From the NCBI RefSeq assembly GCF_008000775.2, contig NZ_CP042905.2, positions 4,260,001 through 4,292,000 of the forward strand: 32,000 nt of DNA, written 5' to 3'. A model generated the notes under the pieces. The model saw nothing but the letters and a program-made list of their open reading frames with translations. It did not search any database and had not been told where the DNA came from. Positions 9,289-31,322 of the stretch are shown one piece after another; the first letter of the stretch is position 1, and each line of letters opens with the position of its first letter. Both the position numbers and the translations under genes were made by a program. This stretch comes from Promethearchaeum syntrophicum (GTDB lineage: Archaea; Asgardarchaeota; Lokiarchaeia; Sigyniarchaeales; Promethearchaeaceae).

Positions 9289-10659
9289 ATGAAAAATTAT
9301 ATGAGTAACGAAAAAAATGAAAATGAAAAGAAAAAGGTTGAAAGCGAGAAATCTCAACCTTTAACTCCAGAACAAAAAGAAGAGCGAAATGAAAATATAA
9401 TTGTTACCATCATTTTATGGTTAACAACGATAGGTCTCTTTATTTCTGTTATTGGAATTATCTGGAGGATTAAAGATTTATTTACTGAAACGGGATGGCA
9501 AGATTTTCTACTATTATCTATTCAAACTCAGATTTTTGTAGTAGGATTAATTCTCTTGGGTACATTTTTCTTAACGCTATTTTTAGTAGTTCTATACCGA
9601 AGAGGAAAACGTTCCATGCACAATATGCTATTTAAAGATAAATACGATGAAATAAGCAAAGATGAGACCTATATACCAGCAAAAATTATCACTGCAGGAA
9701 CTTTACTATGCATTTTTACAATTTTTCTTGGATTGATTATTGCAACAATTGGGTTTTTCCTAAATCAGGGTGAAGGAGAAGATCCATTTGAATTATGGGA
9801 GTGGTTTACTAATTTAACCGGAGGTTCAAGGATTTTACTGGTAGGAGGATCAATTTTAACCTTAGATGCCCTTTTATACTCAGGGATCTATACTTGGGAA
9901 AATGGTCAATGGGTTGTAATAAATCAAATTTTAAAATATAATAAAAAAATGGAAGAGAAACATTCATTCGAGAAAAACCAGAAAATTATTGGCAATATCA
10001 CGTTTACGATAATTGTTATTGAAGTATTAATGATTGTTGTCGGGATAATCTGGGCAATTATTGATGCTGCATTTTTAGATTATGGAACTACATTTAGAAA
10101 TTACCCAGTTGGTATACAAATATCATTTTATGGTATCTTTGGAGCCTTATTATTTACAACATTAATATTCTCAATGTTTATTTATAAACGTGGACAAAAT
10201 TTAATCTTGATAGCACTTTTTGTTCAAATCAGCCCCAAAGAGATTGAAAAAGATAATAAAACAGCCAAAATAATAACGATTGGAATTTTAATCTCAATCT
10301 CACTGATGGTTGTAGGATTAATAATCTGGCTTTTATCTGTAATACTTGAAGCAGTGGATGGGACAACGGGCAATATTTTCACGATTTTAGCTGGAATGAG
10401 TGGTGGCTTAGCTCTATTATCATACAGTGTTATCGCCGCAGTTTTTACGATTCTTATTCTATTATTTACCTTCTTCTTCCATAATGGATACGGCTTCACC
10501 ATGGATAAGATTATTAAAATGGAGAAGTCTTTGGATGATGGCATGGAAAGTGGGAAGAAAAAAACTGATGAAAGAAAGGAAGAGAGAAAAAGACTTAAAG
10601 CATTGAAGAAAGAAGCGAAAAAGAAGGAAAAAGAAGCGAAGAAAGAGAAAAAGGAGTAA
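9289..10659 (+). CDS. Hypothetical 8-TM membrane protein built from internal repeats, with Lys/Glu-rich N- and C-terminal tails
   Basis: 456 aa. Four ~95-100-aa modules of two hydrophobic helices each, starting at about aa 37, 132, 233 and 327. Modules 1/3 share GIIW...Y(R/K)RG; modules 2/4 share KIITxG...GLII. Charged tails MSNEKNENEKKKVESEK and KKEAKKKEKEAKKEKKE. T10 terminator just downstream. Confidence 0.7.
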   Translation: MKNYMSNEKNENEKKKVESEKSQPLTPEQKEERNENIIVTIILWLTTIGLFISVIGIIWRIKDLFTETGWQDFLLLSIQTQIFVVGLILLGTFFLTLFLVVLYRRGKRSMHNMLFKDKYDEISKDETYIPAKIITAGTLLCIFTIFLGLIIATIGFFLNQGEGEDPFELWEWFTNLTGGSRILLVGGSILTLDALLYSGIYTWENGQWVVINQILKYNKKMEEKHSFEKNQKIIGNITFTIIVIEVLMIVVGIIWAIIDAAFLDYGTTFRNYPVGIQISFYGIFGALLFTTLIFSMFIYKRGQNLILIALFVQISPKEIEKDNKTAKIITIGILISISLMVVGLIIWLLSVILEAVDGTTGNIFTILAGMSGGLALLSYSVIAAVFTILILLFTFFFHNGYGFTMDKIIKMEKSLDDGMESGKKKTDERKEERKRLKALKKEAKKKEKEAKKEKKE

Positions 10660-10664
10660 TTTCA

Positions 10665-24468: not shown

Positions 24469-24675
24469 TGAATCAATTGAGCCATCAGGCAACAAATTAT
24501 CGGGATGAGACACCCCTGCTTCTTCTTTTTGATATCTAATGCAATTTGTATTCCCAATTAAACAATAATTATCAACCCAGTAGGAATCCAATTTCTTTTC
24601 ATCAGTAAAATATTTTATTGGACAGCAATAATACCATTTACAAATTCTATAATTAGGGGTCATTTTATATTTCAT
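24457..24675 (-). CDS. Small Cys-rich protein (72 aa), probable metal-binding, translationally coupled to the aminotransferase
   Basis: Five Cys in CKWYYCCP...YCLIGNTNC. 4-nt start/stop overlap with the upstream aminotransferase gene. Its 3' end overlaps the convergent ACT gene by 12 nt. Confidence 0.5.
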   Translation of the reverse strand: MKYKMTPNYRICKWYYCCPIKYFTDEKKLDSYWVDNYCLIGNTNCIRYQKEEAGVSHPDNLLPDGSIDSSLV

Positions 24676-25835
24676 GTTAGAGATCTTTTCTTTAAAAAGC
24701 GTTCTATTCGATTAAAGCCTTCTTCTAATAGTTCATCTGAGGTTGCATATGAAATCCTAAGCGAATAATCAGAATATGACCCAAATCCATTTCCAGGAAC
24801 ACAGGCAACGTGTTCTTCCTTAACTAGATCATTGGAAAACACTTCACTTGTCATATTCCAATTAGGATTTAACCTTGGCATGATGTAAAATGCCCCATAA
24901 GGTTCTACAACATCGAATTGTAACTCTTTTAAGCGTTTTAAGGTAAATTTTCTTTTTTTATCATAATTCTGGAGAATTTGAGGTATATCAGGGTTTCCTT
25001 TTGTTAATGCTTCTATTGCACCATACTGAGTAGGATGATTTACTCCTGCAGCTGTATATTGACCATATTTTTCCATTAATTCAATTATTTCTTTATTGGC
25101 CGCTACATATCCAAGACGAAGCCCAGTAGCACCAAATGTTTTACTTAGTGCATTTAAAGTGAGTGTTCTGTCCATCATTTCATCATAAGAACCAGGACTT
25201 ATATGAATGTGATCGTTATAAAGAAAATTTTCATAAACTTCATCGCTCACTAAGTACAGATCATTTTCAAGCACAATTTGGACCAATTCATCCATTTGTT
25301 TTTTTGAATAGACATACCCAGTTGGATTATTTGGTGAATTAATCATTATAAACTTTGTTTTGGGAGTAATAGCTTTACGAATTGCATCCAAGTTTGGACC
25401 ATAATTCTCCAATCTTGGAACTTCGACCAATTTAAGATGATAATAACTTGCTAGATAAATATATGAAAGAAAATTTGGGCTTGACATTATCATTTCATCA
25501 CCAGGATTGCTCAATACTGCAAAAGATAACTGCAGGGCTTGACTTCCTCCATTGGTAATCATAATATTTTCATTTTCTACCCCTTTCATATTATTTTCCT
25601 TCTGAAATTTCTGGGCAACAACTCTCCTTAATGTGGGTAACCCTAAAGCAGGAGCATATTGAGTCTTATGCTCATTTAATGCCTTAATTATTTCTTTATT
25701 TACGAAATCAGGGCTTGTAAAATCCGGTTGACCGATACCAAATGATATCCCATCAGAGCTTTGTAATAATAATTCAAATAATTTTCTAATTGCACTTTTT
25801 TGGGAATTGAGAATTGCATCTGAAAGTTGTTTCAT
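24672..25835 (-). CDS. Class I/II PLP-dependent aminotransferase (aspartate/aromatic aminotransferase-like)
   Basis: 387 aa. INSPNNPTGY and PLP-lysine context LSKTFGATGLRLGY. Confidence 0.9.
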   Translation of the reverse strand: MKQLSDAILNSQKSAIRKLFELLLQSSDGISFGIGQPDFTSPDFVNKEIIKALNEHKTQYAPALGLPTLRRVVAQKFQKENNMKGVENENIMITNGGSQALQLSFAVLSNPGDEMIMSSPNFLSYIYLASYYHLKLVEVPRLENYGPNLDAIRKAITPKTKFIMINSPNNPTGYVYSKKQMDELVQIVLENDLYLVSDEVYENFLYNDHIHISPGSYDEMMDRTLTLNALSKTFGATGLRLGYVAANKEIIELMEKYGQYTAAGVNHPTQYGAIEALTKGNPDIPQILQNYDKKRKFTLKRLKELQFDVVEPYGAFYIMPRLNPNWNMTSEVFSNDLVKEEHVACVPGNGFGSYSDYSLRISYATSDELLEEGFNRIERFLKKRSLT

Positions 25836-26039: not shown

Positions 26040-26264
26040 ATGAAGAGAATATTTTGGGGGTTTATCATTATAGGAATTATTTTGAGCATTGCTTCAATTT
26101 TCCTTGCAGAAAGTCAACCTTTATTAGTGGTGGGTTTCTTTGGATTATATTTACTTGCAATGTGGGCGACTTTTACATATTTGTTTGACAATATTAAAGT
26201 TAAACGTGAACTACCGGAATTACTACCGGAATTACTTAATCAAAAAAACATTATTGCGAAGTAG
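26040..26264 (+). CDS. Small 2-TM membrane protein (74 aa) upstream of the P-type ATPase
   Basis: ATG preceded by AGGGG. Two hydrophobic helices (IFWGFIIIGIILSIASIFL, LLVVGFFGLYLLAMWATFTYL) and a charged tail with ELPELLPELL. Confidence 0.5.
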   Translation: MKRIFWGFIIIGIILSIASIFLAESQPLLVVGFFGLYLLAMWATFTYLFDNIKVKRELPELLPELLNQKNIIAK

Positions 26265-26405
26265 GAATTCCTTTTTTTCATTTCATAAACCAATCAGTTC
26301 AAATCTGTATTTTACTCTTCTACAATCTAATTTCTAAGTATAGTATATATTTAATACGAAAGATTTAAATTTTTAAAATTCAAAATTAAATTTCATATAA
26401 ATTAA

Positions 26406-29312
26406 GTGATATTTATGACAGAACTAAATACTCATGATAACATAACTGAAAAATGGTTTCTTCTAACACCAAAAGAGACAGAAGAGAAATTACAATCATC
26501 TCTTACTGAGGGTTTATCCAGTAGTGAATCTTTAACTAGATTGGAGAAATATGGCCCAAACGAACTTCAAGCAGGAAAAAAAACCCCTCGTTGGTTGGTT
26601 TTTTTACAGCAATTTCAAGATCCTCTTATTTATATATTAATAGTTTCAGCCATTATATCGGCGGTTGCAGAACATGGCGGACATGATTGGATAGTAATCG
26701 CTGTGATCATTTTCTTAAATGCAATAATTGGATTTTTTCAAGAAGGCAAAGCAGATAAAGCTATAGAAGCTCTCAAAAATTATTCCGCCCCGGATGCTCA
26801 AGTTATTCGCGATGGTAAAGAAATCTCTATTAAAGCTCGTGAACTAGTTCCAGGAGATATAATTGTAATTCATGAAGGGGATATGATTCCAGCCGATGGT
26901 CGCATCTTTGAAGAAAAAAATTTGAAAGCTGAAGAAGCAGCATTAACAGGTGAAAGTGTTCCTGTTAATAAGAATATAAATATTATTGAAGATCCAGAAT
27001 GTCCTCTAGCTGAACATAAAAATATGCTCTTTTCATCAACTTTGGCTACCTATGGTAGGGGAAAAGTAATAATAACTGAAACAGGAATGCAAACTGAAGT
27101 TGGTAAAATCGCAACAATGATTTCCCAAGCTGAAGTAAAATTAACTCCTTTACAAAAAAATCTAGAAGATTTTGGTAAATGGCTAGGTCTTGTTATATTA
27201 TTTATTTGTGCTGTAGTTTTTCTATTGTATTGGTTGTTGGGAGGAGAACCTTGGCTTAAAGCATTATTATCTGGTGTGGCTTTAGCGGTTGCAGCGATAC
27301 CCGAAGGATTACCTGCTGTGGTCACTGTTTGTCTTGCGATTGGAGTGACACGAATGTCTAACAGAAATGCTATCGTTAAAAAATTGCACTCAGTTGAAAC
27401 CTTAGGATGTACTACTGTTATTTGTTCCGATAAAACTGGAACTCTTACAAAAAACGAGATGACTGTTAGGGCTATTTGGACCGGTGGAAAGATGTATGAA
27501 GTGTCTGGTTCCGGTTATGAACCCGAAGGTAAAATTACTCTAGCTGATCAAGAGGTATCAGTAGCCAATATACCAGATCTTGAAATGACATTAAGAATTG
27601 GAATATTATGCAATGATGCTCGAATCAATCAAGATGAAAAAACGGGAAAATGGAATACATTTGGAGATCCAACCGAAGGTTGTCTAGTTACTTCAGCATG
27701 GAAAGCGGGAATGGAACCAAAATCTACAAACGACAAATTTCCACGAATTGATGAAATTCCATTTGATTCTACTAGAAAAAGAATGTCATCAGTTAATGAA
27801 ATAAACGGAAAAAAAATGGCTTTGATTAAAGGGGCTACGGAAATCATTTTAGATTTTTGCAAAAATATTCAATCTGATGGAATAATTCGTCCAATTACAA
27901 ATGAAGACAAGAATCAAATAATTAAAGCATACGAACAGAAAGCCAGTGAAGCTTTGCGAGGACTAGGGTTTGCTTTTCGAGAAGCGGAAGGAATTCCAGT
28001 TGAGATTGAAGAGCTTGAAAAAGATTTAACATTTGTGGGAATGCAATTCATGATTGATCCCCCACGAGATGAAGTTAAAGTTGCAATGCAAGAATGTAAA
28101 GATGCTGGAATTGGAGTTAAAATGATCACAGGGGATAATCTAATAACTGCAACTGCTATTGCAGTAGAATTAGGTATGATTGAAAAAGGAGAAATTACTC
28201 ATGAAGGCAAAGATATCCCCAATATGACAGATGAAGATATTGAGAAATGTAAGGTATATGCACGAGTCAGTCCTGAACATAAACAAAATATAGTTAAAGC
28301 TCTGCAAAACAGACAACAAATTGTCGCTATGACAGGAGATGGAGTAAACGACGCTCCTGCTCTGAAAAACGCTAATGTCGGAGTAGCGATGGGTATTACT
28401 GGAACTGATGTATCAAAAGAAGCGGCAGTGATGGTTTTGGCTGATGATAATTTCGCCACTATAGTTCACGCTGTTGAGGAAGGTCGTGGAATTTATGATA
28501 ATATCAAAAAATTCATTCAATATCTCTTATCTTCAAACATCATGGAAGTGTTAGTGCTTTTAATCGCAGCAATTTTAACTCTTCCCCCCCCACTTGTTGC
28601 TACACAACTACTATGGATAAATTTAGTCACCGATGGTGCTCCCGCTTTAGCTTTAGGGTATGATCCATACGATCCAACTTTGATGAAACAACAACCACGC
28701 CCTTATAATGAACCAATCCTAACCAAAAACTTTGTCATCCAGATGTTTTTCCGAGGAGGAGTTAAAACCATTGTAATTCTTGGTATTTTTCTATTATATA
28801 TTTATCCTACGGCTTTACAACCGACTGAAATGCATTATGAAGATCTTGTTTATTTATATGAAAATGTTGACGGAATTGCCGAAACGCTTGGAGCAACGGT
28901 TGAAGGTTTGAGTGATTTAGAATTATTGGTAATAAAATATGAAGACCATTCTACTTTAAGCCTTTTATCTTCTCAAGAATTATTGTTAGATAGATACGTC
29001 ATGTGGCATGCAAGATCAGTGTGTTTCTTAGCAATGATGTTTGGGGAAATGGCAAATGCATTTAATTGTCGTTCGGAATACAGCTCCCTTTTTAAAATCG
29101 GACTTTTTACCAATAAAATCATGCTCTATGCTGTAGGAATTTCAACGATCTTGACCATAGCACTTTATATTCCAGGAAGTCCATTAGGTTTAATCTTTAA
29201 AGTCATTCCTATGCCTTTCCTTGAATGGTTGTGGCTTATTCCAATGATAATAATTGTTATAGGTTCTGTAGAATTAATGAAACTGTTTTACCGCAAGAAG
29301 CTAAATCTATAA
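26406..29312 (+). CDS. P2A-type (SERCA-like) Ca2+-transporting P-type ATPase
   Basis: 968 aa. TGES (LTGESVPV), ICSDKTGTLT, KGATE, MITGDN, MTGDGVNDAPALK. Ca-site residues are conserved by motif: M4 AIPEGLPAVVT, M5 SSNIMEV, M6 LLWINLVTDG, M8 GEMANAFN. N-terminal Cation_ATPase_N-like LTEGLSSSESLTRLEKYGPNEL. The track start is GTG 26406; ATG 26415 is more likely. Confidence 0.92.
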   Translation: MIFMTELNTHDNITEKWFLLTPKETEEKLQSSLTEGLSSSESLTRLEKYGPNELQAGKKTPRWLVFLQQFQDPLIYILIVSAIISAVAEHGGHDWIVIAVIIFLNAIIGFFQEGKADKAIEALKNYSAPDAQVIRDGKEISIKARELVPGDIIVIHEGDMIPADGRIFEEKNLKAEEAALTGESVPVNKNINIIEDPECPLAEHKNMLFSSTLATYGRGKVIITETGMQTEVGKIATMISQAEVKLTPLQKNLEDFGKWLGLVILFICAVVFLLYWLLGGEPWLKALLSGVALAVAAIPEGLPAVVTVCLAIGVTRMSNRNAIVKKLHSVETLGCTTVICSDKTGTLTKNEMTVRAIWTGGKMYEVSGSGYEPEGKITLADQEVSVANIPDLEMTLRIGILCNDARINQDEKTGKWNTFGDPTEGCLVTSAWKAGMEPKSTNDKFPRIDEIPFDSTRKRMSSVNEINGKKMALIKGATEIILDFCKNIQSDGIIRPITNEDKNQIIKAYEQKASEALRGLGFAFREAEGIPVEIEELEKDLTFVGMQFMIDPPRDEVKVAMQECKDAGIGVKMITGDNLITATAIAVELGMIEKGEITHEGKDIPNMTDEDIEKCKVYARVSPEHKQNIVKALQNRQQIVAMTGDGVNDAPALKNANVGVAMGITGTDVSKEAAVMVLADDNFATIVHAVEEGRGIYDNIKKFIQYLLSSNIMEVLVLLIAAILTLPPPLVATQLLWINLVTDGAPALALGYDPYDPTLMKQQPRPYNEPILTKNFVIQMFFRGGVKTIVILGIFLLYIYPTALQPTEMHYEDLVYLYENVDGIAETLGATVEGLSDLELLVIKYEDHSTLSLLSSQELLLDRYVMWHARSVCFLAMMFGEMANAFNCRSEYSSLFKIGLFTNKIMLYAVGISTILTIALYIPGSPLGLIFKVIPMPFLEWLWLIPMIIIVIGSVELMKLFYRKKLNL

Positions 29313-29330
29313 CAATCATGCAAGAAATAA

Positions 29331-29350
29331 TTTTTTGTTTTTTTTTTTTT
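29331..29350 (+). terminator. T6-G-T13 tract downstream of the ATPase stop
   Basis: Begins 19 nt after TAA 29310-29312. It is the longest T run in the window. Confidence 0.55.
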
Positions 29351-29459
29351 CCACAAAATCCAGAGAAATTTCTCTTTAGATAGAAAATTGGGAAAAAATA
29401 TAAAAAATATTTAATTGCTCACTCCATATAATCTATTAGATTATCTTCTATTCAAATGA

Positions 29460-29684
29460 GTGAAAAAGATGAAATTAAAAAATATTCTTAAATTTGTATT
29501 TTGGGTGGGTTTAATTTCAGCGTTGGTTATTATTTTAGTGTTAATTCCGAGTCTCGAGTATTATACCTTTAGCATTCTTATTATACTTGCAATATTCGGT
29601 CTTAAAAAAGTACAGGAACGATTTTGGGTAAGGAAAAAAGAATCTGTAGATCAAATTACGAATGCCTCTTTAGGTAAGCAATAA
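29460..29684 (+). CDS. Small 2-TM membrane protein, cassette copy 1 (type A)
   Basis: 74 aa. Paralog of the next three ORFs (FWVGLISALVIILVLIP, LIILAIFGL, DQITNASLG). The track start is GTG 29460. ATG 29469, preceded by GAGTGA (SD-like), may be the true start. Confidence 0.65.
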   Translation: MKKMKLKNILKFVFWVGLISALVIILVLIPSLEYYTFSILIILAIFGLKKVQERFWVRKKESVDQITNASLGKQ

Positions 29685-29724
29685 ATCTTTGAGACCTTTG
29701 AGAAAGATTTAGTTAATTATAAAT
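29683..29724. promoter_or_regulatory. Junction element 1: palindrome AAATCTTT-N12-AAAGATTT overlapping the stop codon, followed by TATA-like TTAATTATAAAT
   Basis: Arms at 29683-29690 and 29703-29710. TATA-like box at 29713-29724, about 46 nt upstream of the next start (29770). Confidence 0.55.
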
Positions 29725-29769
29725 TGCTTAACTCTATACAATTTAGTATATAGTCATCTGCCAAAAAGA

Positions 29770-30003
29770 GTGAAAAATGTGAAATCAAAAAACATTCTAA
29801 AATTTGGAATATGGATAGTTTTAATCTCGGCATTGGTTATCTCTTTATTCCTTATTCCTAACCTCGCGGAATATACATTTAGCGTTCTTATGATACTTAC
29901 AATATTCGCTCTTGCAAAATTACGGGAACGATTAGGGGTAAGGAAAAAATTATCTGCAGAGCAAGTTACGAATGCCTCTTTAGGTAATCGTTCTATGCAA
30001 TAA
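29770..30003 (+). CDS. Small 2-TM membrane protein, cassette copy 2 (type B)
   Basis: 77 aa. MKNVKSK..SALVISLFLIPNLAEY..AEQVTNASLGNRS. GTG starts at 29770 or 29779. Confidence 0.65.
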   Translation: MKNVKSKNILKFGIWIVLISALVISLFLIPNLAEYTFSVLMILTIFALAKLRERLGVRKKLSAEQVTNASLGNRSMQ

Positions 30004-30043
30004 ATCTTTGAGGCATCTGAGAAAGATTTAGTTAATTATAAAT
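30002..30043. promoter_or_regulatory. Junction element 2: the same palindrome plus TATA-like box
   Basis: Arms at 30002-30009 and 30022-30029, loop GAGGCATCTGAG. TTAATTATAAAT at 30032-30043. Confidence 0.55.
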
Positions 30044-30088
30044 ACCTTAACTCTATACAATCTAATATATCCTCTTCTGCTTAAACGA

Positions 30089-30322
30089 GTGAAAAAGATG
30101 AAATCAATAAATCTCAAAAGATTTGGATTTTGGGTGGGTTTAATATCAGCTTTGGTTATAATATTAGTCTTAATTCCTAAGATCGAGCGATATACATTAT
30201 TTTTTCTTATTATACTTGCAATATTCGGTCTTGAAAAATTAGGGGAAAGAATATGTGTAAGGATAAAATTAACTGCAGAGCAAGTTACGAATGCCCATAT
30301 AAATAATCGTTCTAATCATTAA
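30089..30322 (+). CDS. Small 2-TM membrane protein, cassette copy 3 (type A)
   Basis: 77 aa. FWVGLISALVIILVLIP is identical to copy 1. AEQVTNA..NRS tail resembles copy 2. Confidence 0.65.
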   Translation: MKKMKSINLKRFGFWVGLISALVIILVLIPKIERYTLFFLIILAIFGLEKLGERICVRIKLTAEQVTNAHINNRSNH

Positions 30323-30362
30323 ATCTTTGAGGCATCTGAGAAAGATTTAGTTAATTATAAAT
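30321..30362. promoter_or_regulatory. Junction element 3: the same palindrome plus TATA-like box
   Basis: Arms at 30321-30328 and 30341-30348, loop identical to junction 2. TTAATTATAAAT at 30351-30362. Confidence 0.55.
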
Positions 30363-30407
30363 TGCTTAACTCTATACAATTTAGTATATTATCATCTGCG
30401 ATCAAGA

Positions 30408-30665
30408 GTGAAAAATGTGAAATCAAAAAGCATTGTAAAAATTGGAGTTTGGACAGTTTTAACTTCAGCTTTGGCTATCTCCTTATTTCTAATTCCTACC
30501 CTCGCGGAATATATAATAGTTGTTCTCACTATACTCATTATATACGGTATTGCACAATTTACGGCCCAATTAAGGGTAAGAAAAGAGTTGTCCATAGATC
30601 AATCTATAAATACCTCTTTACAGTGCTCTGTCCTTTTAGTAGTTTTACTTATATTAATTCTATAA
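30408..30665 (+). CDS. Small membrane protein, cassette copy 4 (type B) with a divergent hydrophobic C-terminal extension
   Basis: 85 aa. MKNVKSK..SALAISLFLIPTLAEY matches copy 2. Homology stops after NTSL and the ORF runs on into CSVLLVVLLILIL. Confidence 0.6.
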   Translation: MKNVKSKSIVKIGVWTVLTSALAISLFLIPTLAEYIIVVLTILIIYGIAQFTAQLRVRKELSIDQSINTSLQCSVLLVVLLILIL

Positions 30666-30698
30666 AATTAGGTTAAAAAAATAAAGGAAGAATATTGA

Positions 30699-31322
30699 TT
30701 ATTCTCCGAGTTCATCAAATGGAATATGCATAGTTTCAACTGAATTCATTGTAATTGCCATAATATCCATGGCATTTCCGGCCATTGCATCTCTTTTTAT
30801 TGCGTTTCTTACCACTTTTTTCATTAACTCAATGCCTTTTTTTACTGTCAGAGTTGGTTTATATTCTGCTTCCAAGATTGAAACTGCGAAGGTTGCTGAG
30901 CTTCCACTCACACCGTAATCGTCTTCCATTAAAGAACCAATAGCATCCATGGTGTAGACTCTAGGGCCATTTTCATCTATCCCTGCAACTTCTACATTAA
31001 CATATAAAGGAGCCATCTTTCTTTGATACATATAATTTGCTACCATTTTAGCCATAGCTTGAACTGAAATTTTATAGCCTTCTCGTAATTCATAGATGTT
31101 AGCTTGTGCATTCATGATTCGGGCTAATGCTTGGAAGTCTCCAATTAGACCGTAGCACGATATCGCTATCTTCTTGTCTTTTGTAAGAGGAAATATCTTC
31201 TTCACGTTCTTGTTATTAACCGTATAACCCCAAGTTGACCTTGTGTCATTACCTAAAACCACTCCATCCTTACATCTTATTGCCACGCTACAAGCGCCCG
31301 GAACCCAAATTTGCTGCGACAT
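30699..31322 (-). CDS. psmB: 20S proteasome beta-type subunit, apparently non-catalytic (Ala at the Thr1 position)
   Basis: 207 aa. Collinear with archaeal and eukaryotic beta subunits (KIFP, IYELREG, MVANYMYQRK, VAGID, DAIGS..DDYGVSGS, RDAMAGN). The N-terminus MSQQIWVPG-ACSVAIRCKDGVV places Ala where Gly-Thr1 is expected. Confidence 0.85.
   Translation of the reverse strand: MSQQIWVPGACSVAIRCKDGVVLGNDTRSTWGYTVNNKNVKKIFPLTKDKKIAISCYGLIGDFQALARIMNAQANIYELREGYKISVQAMAKMVANYMYQRKMAPLYVNVEVAGIDENGPRVYTMDAIGSLMEDDYGVSGSSATFAVSILEAEYKPTLTVKKGIELMKKVVRNAIKRDAMAGNAMDIMAITMNSVETMHIPFDELGE

Follow-up and report, generated by a model that had tools for sequence, protein, structure and literature searches.

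A tandem cassette array of an orphan predicted membrane protein, variable in copy number among relatives of Promethearchaeum syntrophicum MK-D1

We analysed a stretch of 32,000 nucleotides (nt) from the Asgard archaeon Promethearchaeum syntrophicum MK-D1 (NZ_CP042905.2, positions 4,260,001-4,292,000 of the forward strand; hereafter the window), which contains a tandem array of four small, paralogous genes. The four open reading frames (ORFs) lie on the plus strand (29460-29684, 29770-30003, 30089-30322 and 30408-30665), measure 74, 77, 77 and 85 amino acids (aa) when counted from an upstream GTG, and correspond to DSAG12_00488-00491, all annotated as "hypothetical". A repeat search of the window returned four copies of 300 nt spaced by 310, 319 and 319 nt, and Tandem Repeats Finder reported for the array a period of 319 nt with 3.5 copies, 77% matches and a score of 1207; the tandem repeat structure is thus far beyond chance. 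An earlier interpretation made from the letters of the window (the sequence-only reading) held that coding sequence and non-coding junctions are conserved together, and the DNA alignment bears this out, the junctions being repeated along with the coding sequence across the four units. We found no compositional anomaly of the array, whose GC content (0.27-0.31) is genome-like. The parts of the cassettes, with the convergent gene that follows them, are listed below; "SD-like" stands for Shine-Dalgarno-like, and FWG is the small neighbouring gene DSAG12_00486.

29313-29468, plus strand: leader of cassette 1, with a T-run, a fragment resembling the FWG leader (about 29365-29412), a TATA-like box (AAATATTTAAT, about 29403-29418) and the SD-like motif GAGTGA (29458-29463)
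29469-29684, plus strand: copy 1, DSAG12_00488, alpha type; ATG start, 71 aa, with an alternative in-frame GTG at 29460
29685-29778, plus strand: junction and leader 2, with an AU-rich inverted repeat right after the stop, a TATA-like box (TTAATTATAAAT, 29713-29724) and GAGTGA (29768-29773)
29779-30003, plus strand: copy 2, DSAG12_00489, a chimera, beta-like in its 5' half and alpha-like in its 3' half; GTG start, 74 aa
30004-30097, plus strand: junction and leader 3, with a TATA-like box (30032-30043)
30098-30322, plus strand: copy 3, DSAG12_00490, alpha type and the most diverged alpha copy; ATG start, 74 aa
30323-30416, plus strand: junction and leader 4, with a TATA-like box (30351-30362), sharing about 45 nt with leader 2 at 100% identity
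30417-30665, plus strand: copy 4, DSAG12_00491, beta-long type; GTG start, 82 aa, with a hydrophobic C-terminal extension (CSVLLVVLLILIL)
30699-31322, minus strand: psmB, proteasome beta subunit, convergent to the array, 33 nt from the stop of copy 4

GenBank places the starts 9 nt downstream of those of the four ORFs given first, at 29469 (ATG), 29779 (GTG), 30098 (ATG) and 30417 (GTG), with products of 71, 74, 74 and 82 aa. The sequence-only reading had instead taken as starts the in-frame GTG codons within the conserved GAGTGA. Its alternation of ATG and GTG is nevertheless found at the GenBank starts, and so is the SD-like motif it described ahead of them: GAGTGA lies 5 nt from the GenBank start, a spacing that matches the SD-like G-rich motifs common 5-10 nt upstream of other genes in the window. 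Every copy carries two in-frame starts three codons apart with a Lys between them (V-K-K/N-M/V-K), the upstream GTG being conserved because it is located within the SD-like motif. About 55 nt upstream of each start stands the TATA-like box TTAATTATAAAT, which may serve as the promoter of each cassette; its core, ATTTAGTTAAT-TATAA, is common to the cassettes and the FWG gene. Promoter and SD motifs are kept in every copy and in every genome that we compared. A scan for bacterial sigma-70 promoters and terminators performed no better than on shuffled sequences and is inapplicable to an archaeon.

Two further reading frames overlap the cassettes. Opposite the cassette leader and start, an antisense ORF of 35-40 aa (MISHFSLFLAE(D/N)NFLDSI...) is present in the related contigs L001 (9998-10120, minus strand), L005 (2233-2355, minus strand) and L006 (1047-1154, minus strand), and its counterpart in the window is interrupted early by a stop; conservation of the leader probably accounts for this ORF. 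The whole of cassette 4 is covered by an alternative-frame ORF of 104 aa (30362-30676, plus strand), and a 76-aa ORF occupies the same frame in L004 (10806-11036, plus strand). In that frame the number of stops is 0-2 for beta and 2-4 for alpha copies, and the ORF probably reflects codon composition.

The alignment of the four proteins has 22 invariant columns, including W15, S20-A21-L22, P30, V57-R58, Q65 and N68, and agrees with the proposed layout of a Lys-rich N-terminus, a first transmembrane segment (TM1), an acidic turn, a second segment (TM2), a basic segment and a polar tail. In the hydropathy profile, residues from about 9 to 27 and from about 31 to 48 form two hydrophobic segments. 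The first nine residues contain three Lys/Arg (+3), three to six Lys/Arg follow TM2 (+2 to +5) ahead of the polar tail, and the short loop between the two segments carries a net negative charge in all but one of the four copies. By the positive-inside rule the protein is predicted to be an N-in/C-in helical hairpin, so that hydropathy and charge both favour the two-TM topology expected from the letters. AlphaFold2, run with a 13-sequence alignment, modelled a helix at residues 4-28, a break at the invariant Pro30 and a second helix at 30-76 (mean pLDDT 71, pTM 0.30). It is unlikely that TM1 acts as a cleavable signal peptide, as it measures about 19 residues and is the best-conserved part of the protein (dN/dS, or omega, of about 0.37). 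The alpha type reads ...EYYTFSVLIILAIFGLAKLRERLxVRKKLTAEQITNAS... and the beta type ...AEYIIVVLTILIIYGIAQFTAQLRVRKELSVDQSINTS...; some beta copies bear the hydrophobic C-terminal extension (copy 4 of the window, L007, the second copy of L011 and the third of L004), and tail peptides are copy-specific (e.g. LSAEQVTNASLGNR).

The family is narrowly distributed. Screening 5.8 billion proteins with a word-seeded profile search yielded 13 homologs, all at least 46% identical. When 1.84 billion cluster representatives were searched exhaustively with a HMMER profile, the only match besides family members was one spurious protein, the 827-aa P0015, which we rejected as a low-complexity V/I/L/G/T repeat. 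In total the family counts about 15 members, all from close relatives. The best matches in Pfam-A and NCBIfam stayed under the cut-off (DUF3149, E = 0.004, 17 bits vs 23.2; MyrrNad, E = 0.02, 14.7 bits vs 40), the best sequence match in the PDB had E = 0.31, Foldseek gave 0 matches against PDB and BFVD, and PADLOC gave none to the array proteins. Likewise, we found no relatives of the family in IMG/VR, in the GTDB species genomes, scanned twice, or by tblastn against phage records and plasmid records; a scan of JGI metagenomes yielded one family locus, and the locus tags of the array do not occur in published paper text. Where context is available, the genomes bearing the family encode an aminotransferase 89-91% and a PsmB 95-96% identical in protein sequence to those of MK-D1, and therefore belong to congeners. 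The family is confined to Promethearchaeum and its closest relatives, and the statement of the sequence-only reading that it knew of no described family stands after these curated-family, structure, virus and plasmid searches. We conclude that this is a real, previously uncharacterised orphan family of a familiar kind, namely a tandemly amplified, lineage-specific small membrane protein.

To place the array in context we compared the contigs of relatives, numbered L001-L015, with the window. The number of copies varies as follows.

0 copies: L012 and L013, with the order aminotransferase-FWG-psmB
1 copy: L006, with a DUF998 gene upstream
2 copies: L001-L003 and L009
3 copies: L004
4 copies: the window (MK-D1)

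With zero to four copies among congeners, the array is dispensable. Its sole constant neighbour is psmB.

Within the window the copies are mosaics. In sliding comparisons, copies 2 and 4 are closest to each other in the leader (up to 100%) and in the 5' coding part (77-90%), and copies 1 and 3 in the 5' coding part (73-90%), as the sequence-only reading had proposed. The 3' coding half does not follow this pattern: here copies 1, 2 and 3 cluster (80-100%) and copy 4 stands apart, and the closest pair over the whole gene is 1 and 2, with 43 differences. Set against all foreign copies, copy 2 proves to be a chimera, its 5' half being nearest to the beta-long copies of L007 and L011 (8/105 differences) and its 3' half to the alpha copy of L006 (7/105 differences). 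Orthologs of copy 4 are found in L007, L011 and L004. L011 carries an alpha (ATG) and beta-long (GTG) pair at 319-nt spacing which is collinear with copies 3 and 4 of the window (86% over 706 nt); the alpha-beta pair beside psmB is therefore ancestral. Thus, the two-gene unit postulated before is genuine, but a clean A-B-A-B duplication is not what the chimeric copy 2 records, and recombination or gene conversion must be added to it.

Further traces of rearrangement are scattered over the related loci. Fragments of the psmB 3' end lie between the copies of L004 and after FWG in L001, so duplications have crossed the boundary between the convergent genes; such pseudo-fragments (e.g. ...SVETMHIPFNEIGE) map to L004 9677-9835 and 10259-10351 (minus strand) and to L001 9582-9644. 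FWG-leader fragments precede copy 1 of the window, the second copy of L001 and the first two copies of L004, and by BLAST L001 10004-10314 matches window positions 29364-29672 at 81%. Conversion within the array is indicated in L009, where copy 1 matches copy 2 of the same genome over its 5' half. L004 also has its FWG gene (10462-10660) between array copies 2 and 3, where it looks split into two overlapping ORFs, possibly by a frameshift or as a pseudogene.

The cassettes appear younger than their surroundings. Synonymous divergence (dS) and omega for the genes of the locus were:

aminotransferase, MK-D1 versus relatives: dS 0.54-0.77, omega 0.06-0.10
psmB, MK-D1 versus relatives: dS 1.1-1.95, omega 0.02-0.03
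FWG, MK-D1 versus relatives: dS 0.6-1.1, omega 0.2-0.7
array family, window copies versus nearest foreign copies: dS 0.15-0.25

Similarly, between L001 (9566-10317) and L009 (290-1129) the array is 96.4% identical, compared with 78.7% for FWG and 82.7% for psmB, and third codon positions are 90-97% identical in the family genes and 57% in psmB. The simplest reading of these figures is that recombination between lineages gave the cassettes a common ancestor more recent than that of the surrounding genomes.

Pairwise Nei-Gojobori dN/dS among the window copies is 0.53-1.03, with a median of 0.87 between genomes, and divergence is alike in the leader (0.23), the coding sequence (0.20) and the third codon position (0.21). 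Over whole genes the differences fall almost equally on the three codon positions (1174:1010:1140), which the sequence-only reading had named as a sign against coding. This appearance is overturned by frame preservation, by the second positions of TM1 and by the conservative nature of the replacements. Frame 1 has no stop in any of the 13 distinct copies, compared with 13-119 stops in the other five frames, and the probability that all 13 would stay open under unconstrained substitution is about 3e-7 (minimum spanning tree, 274 changes). Replacements are conservative, with a BLOSUM62 sum of +11 against -77 +/- 24 for random changes (0/2000 simulations reached +11) and hydropathy changes lower than random (P = 0.003). 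The second position shows the strongest conservation within codons 1-30 (entropy 0.16-0.26 vs 0.27-0.60 at the other two positions). Indels, which if frame-breaking would be the other sign against coding, are missing from the 210-nt coding core, and several are found in the leaders. Selection therefore acts on the protein and maintains its frame and TM1.

Splitting the genes by type and by half resolves the paradox between these coding signals and a near-neutral whole-gene dN/dS. In alpha copies, the 5' half (N-terminus and TM1) shows 17 silent and 21 replacing distinct events (omega about 0.37). In the 3' half, which comprises the loop, TM2 and the cytoplasmic helix, we counted 49 replacements and 5 silent changes (omega about 3; binomial P = 0.006); the two halves differ by Fisher test at P = 1.3e-4. 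Beta copies have an omega of about 0.7. The replacement excess in the alpha C-terminal half is suggestive only, because the counts are crude and the sequences recombine. The purifying selection that had been anticipated is thus present in TM1 and not in the gene as a whole (omega about 0.5-1) or in the alpha 3' half, and the "diversification pressure" mentioned in the same reading has become plausible. Some codons are hypervariable (codon 56 with seven residues, codon 70 with five), flanked by codons that are nucleotide-identical across genomes. A-specific mutation of the type made by diversity-generating retroelements was not seen at these codons, where changes occur at all three positions and involve all bases, and there is no reverse transcriptase near the array.

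On balance, we consider it probable that the locus is a recombination-driven, rapidly evolving array of accessory cassettes for an orphan small membrane protein. Each of the four cassettes would be autonomous, with a TATA-like promoter, the SD-like GAGTGA and an ORF for a membrane protein of 71-82 aa. The protein would insert N-in/C-in: behind its Lys-rich N-terminus would come TM1, a short loop of acidic character, TM2, an amphipathic basic helix in the cytoplasm and a polar tail. The array may grow, shrink and shuffle through homologous recombination among its units, by unequal crossing-over and gene conversion; MK-D1 would have gained a second alpha-beta pair, later remodelled by either process, and the array would have been exchanged between lineages more recently than the flanking genes diverged. 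Selection would keep the frame and TM1, and in the alpha cytoplasmic C-terminal half replacement may run faster than silent change. In this scheme the conserved TM1 could provide an anchor or an oligomerisation surface and the variable basic cytoplasmic helix a specificity surface for a changing partner, the protein acting independently of the adjacent pump. As to function, we tentatively propose an accessory membrane protein of the conflict type, immunity/exclusion-like or toxin-like, which we put forward with clearly less confidence than the anatomical and evolutionary account.

Several points weigh against this account. Whole-gene dN/dS is near 1, and the number of replacements (177, compared with a neutral expectation of 184 +/- 7) is not reduced. 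The omega above 1 comes from a crude event count in about 11 recombining sequences, and the island of high identity from short metagenome or metagenome-assembled-genome contigs that could be strain or assembly chimeras. The AlphaFold2 model has only moderate confidence. What the analysis shows is the anatomy of the repeat, the distribution of the family, the preserved frame, the pattern of selection, the variation in copy number, the chimerism and the missing linkage to the pump; we infer which promoters are used, the membrane topology, the exchange between lineages and any biochemical role. Since neither a partner gene nor a toxin, sensor or virus context is present at the locus, the conflict role is drawn from evolutionary behaviour only. 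Finally, transcript levels of the array are those of uniform coverage. Supplementary Table 3 of Imachi et al. 2020 gives reads per kilobase per million (RPKM) for each MK-D1 gene, unstranded (PMC7015854), with the following values:

DSAG12_00488: RPKM 231 (PMC7015854)
DSAG12_00489: RPKM 239 (PMC7015854)
DSAG12_00490: RPKM 223 (PMC7015854)
DSAG12_00491: RPKM 189 (PMC7015854)
P-type ATPase upstream of the array: RPKM 261 (PMC7015854)
psmB: RPKM 288 (PMC7015854)

About 120 neighbouring genes range from 125 to 629, tRNAs from 228 to 285, and ribosomal protein L2 stands at 349 (PMC7015854). Uniform coverage of the 4.43-Mb genome alone would give about 226. The values are compressed around that figure and therefore neither prove nor disprove transcription of the array (189-239). 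The same compression leaves the published RPKM with little power to call the expression of any hypothetical gene of MK-D1.

The main rival holds that the array resembles type I toxin-antitoxin loci, with a small membrane-active toxin held in check by a cis antisense RNA or an mRNA structure from the junction or coding region. Published searches for new type I toxins looked for short TM ORFs in tandem within one intergenic region, with a charged or polar C-terminus, and single, tandem or absent between strains (PMC2887945), and the array fits most of this description, including the tandem TM ORFs, the polar C-terminus and the copies that vary between genomes. The ldr/rdl "long direct repeats", ibs/sib and zor/orz (Fozo et al. 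2010, PMC2887945) are likewise head-to-tail small membrane ORFs duplicated in one intergenic region together with their flanks, end in a polar or charged C-terminus, occur in single, multiple or no copies, are lineage-restricted and have no protein partner (PMC2887945). In the array, too, similarity extends beyond the ORF and no protein partner gene is present at the locus; tandem amplification, presence or absence between strains and orphan distribution would all be usual for loci of this type. An antisense RNA could be framed by minus-strand T5-T6 runs that face the SD, KSK and VRKK codons and by TATA-like AT-rich strings that face TM2. On the other hand, those systems are bacterial and encode proteins of fewer than 60-70 aa, usually with one TM (PMC2887945), whereas the array is archaeal and its products of 71-82 aa have two predicted TM segments, with no homology to any toxin family in our searches. 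Purifying selection and no horizontal spread are reported for type I loci (PMC2887945), unlike the replacement excess and the apparent horizontal exchange of the array. Furthermore, we found no structured RNA in the junctions, where leader folds are no more stable than shuffled sequences (z-scores -0.3 to +0.6), and an Rfam search of the array region gave no match. We are aware of no archaeal type I system that has been validated. We regard this explanation as unlikely, and as the strongest of the competitors.

A second possibility is that the ORFs are young, near-neutral proto-genes, weakly translated or untranslated and without a cellular role, thrown up by a recombination-prone intergenic hotspot. 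The whole-gene omega of about 0.5-1.0, the equal divergence of leader, coding sequence and third positions, the restriction to one genus, the dispensability of the array and the co-duplicated flank fragments all suit it. However, it would not predict a frame open in 13/13 copies, a TM1 under constraint with conserved second codon positions, or replacements that are conservative. Moreover, the alpha 3' half departs from parity towards an excess of replacements, and promoter and SD motifs have been retained throughout. For these reasons we find the proto-gene explanation improbable, more so than a type I-like system.

The sequence-only reading had also connected the array to a Ca2+ pump directly upstream, and suggested dosage or diversification pressure on a membrane micro-protein. 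The genes on that side of the array are:

24672-25835, minus strand: class I/II aminotransferase
26040-26264, plus strand: FWG, DSAG12_00486, a 70-aa two-TM protein (74 aa as the ORF), of a separate and better-conserved family
26406-29312, plus strand: P-type ATPase DSAG12_00487 (Ca2+-type, IIA/IIB-like)

A run of about 20 T (89% pure) at 29331-29350, beginning 19 nt past the ATPase stop, is likely to be an archaeal oligo-T terminator between the pump and cassette 1. MK-D1 also has an ATPase paralog, DSAG12_00551 (71%).

According to the pump hypothesis, the array proteins would modulate the ATPase next to them, after the fashion of the micro-proteins phospholamban, sarcolipin or KdpF, with amplification serving dosage. 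Regulation of P-type ATPases by small membrane proteins is well known, and in MK-D1 the array begins 148 nt past the ATPase stop on the same strand. Phospholamban, sarcolipin, KdpF and MgtR/MgtS are small membrane proteins like those of the array, but they have one TM, as known regulins consist of a single TM helix, and they share no homology with it. More decisively, the adjacency is specific to MK-D1 and the pump link was not borne out. In L001-L005 and L009 the array lies between the aminotransferase and psmB with no ATPase, and an 88%-identical ATPase ortholog (P0017, in L008) and the ATPases of L014 and L015 precede TFIIB and have no family member beside them. L008 and the window are homologous only over window positions 26357-29309, and therefore the pump gene moved as a separate block; beside the L008 ortholog we found no array remnants beyond chance AT-rich matches. 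L012 and L013, furthermore, have no copy at the locus. Adjacency to the pump is thus a coincidence of the MK-D1 genome, the homologs in the sampled relatives do not neighbour P-type ATPases, and regulation of the pump by the array is very improbable. The ATPase block itself appears movable (L008 164-3089, L014 2697-5555, directly upstream of TFIIB), the TFIIB gene of MK-D1 (DSAG12_00506) being 19 genes away.

The recurrent small neighbour of the pump is the FWG protein. Its family has 25 members, all from Promethearchaeota or unnamed metagenome sequences, with 18 invariant columns in 24 sequences. FWG immediately precedes the ATPase in MK-D1, L014 and L015 and occurs alone in L001, L005, L009 and L012, so that it, and not the array, is the more plausible pump-associated micro-protein, if any here is. 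It resembles the array proteins in size and in the order of its features (MK..W, TM1, loop, TM2, basic V(K/R)K, polar tail), and shares with the array the promoter core, the slot between aminotransferase and psmB and the leader fragments embedded in the arrays. In contrast to the array, FWG is single-copy and under clearer purifying selection (omega 0.2-0.7). Alignment of the array family and FWG by hhalign was collinear, with probabilities of 4.7% (P = 0.0085) and 11.8% (P = 0.0025), and homology between them is not demonstrable at these values. The FWG gene of MK-D1 contains a perfect 12-nt tandem duplication (ACTACCGGAATT x 2.2; window 26210-26236), which adds ELPE, an insertion absent from all 23 other members of the family.

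Class II holins and pinholins (e.g. S21 of phage 21) match the array proteins in size and two-TM architecture, and a lysis or permeabilisation protein of a (defective) provirus would explain several of their traits: about 70 aa, two predicted TM segments in a putative N-in/C-in orientation, a charged cytoplasmic C-terminal tail and dual Lys-separated starts in every copy. However, the upstream GTG lies in the SD-like motif, which explains its conservation, and the multi-copy, chromosomal array sits among housekeeping genes (aminotransferase, ATPase, proteasome) with no endolysin, viral context or phage or provirus lysis cassette. Neither IMG/VR, BFVD nor phage records yielded a match, and the best holin in PHROGs, phrog_297, was not significant (E = 0.55). 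The probability of a holin origin is accordingly slight. Equally slight is that of a non-coding RNA or DNA repeat with fortuitous ORFs, for although conservation is similar at the three codon positions and in the leaders and the antisense -2 frame has few stops, the latter is expected opposite hydrophobic codons, only frame 1 is always open, replacements are conservative, the two-TM hydropathy and positive-inside pattern recur regularly in four of four copies, and we found neither significant RNA structure nor an Rfam match.

Returning to the accessory cassette array, its bearing on the organism is as follows. P. syntrophicum MK-D1 is the first cultured Asgard archaeon, and 1755 of its 3946 ORFs are listed as hypothetical. 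The locus offers a compact, experimentally tractable case of very recent gene-family dynamics in this lineage, combining an orphan membrane micro-protein, zero to four copies, chimeras, an apparent sweep between lineages and an excess of replacements restricted to a single half of the protein. The population-level dynamics of the array are unusually lively, and the pump link fails. Our analysis thereby corrects an over-reading, as the array proteins are not "regulins" of a SERCA-like pump. A bolder possibility, which we hold to be doubtful, is that the array represents the first self-standing membrane "conflict" module of Asgard archaea, either an antisense-RNA-controlled, two-TM type I-toxin-like gene or an anti-viral or anti-toxin exclusion protein, whose cytoplasmic helix would be diversifying and whose array would be swapped among co-occurring Promethearchaeum lineages. 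Should membrane activity or a relation to viruses be established for the protein, the genetic conflict systems or type I-like toxins of Asgard archaea would gain a first point of entry.

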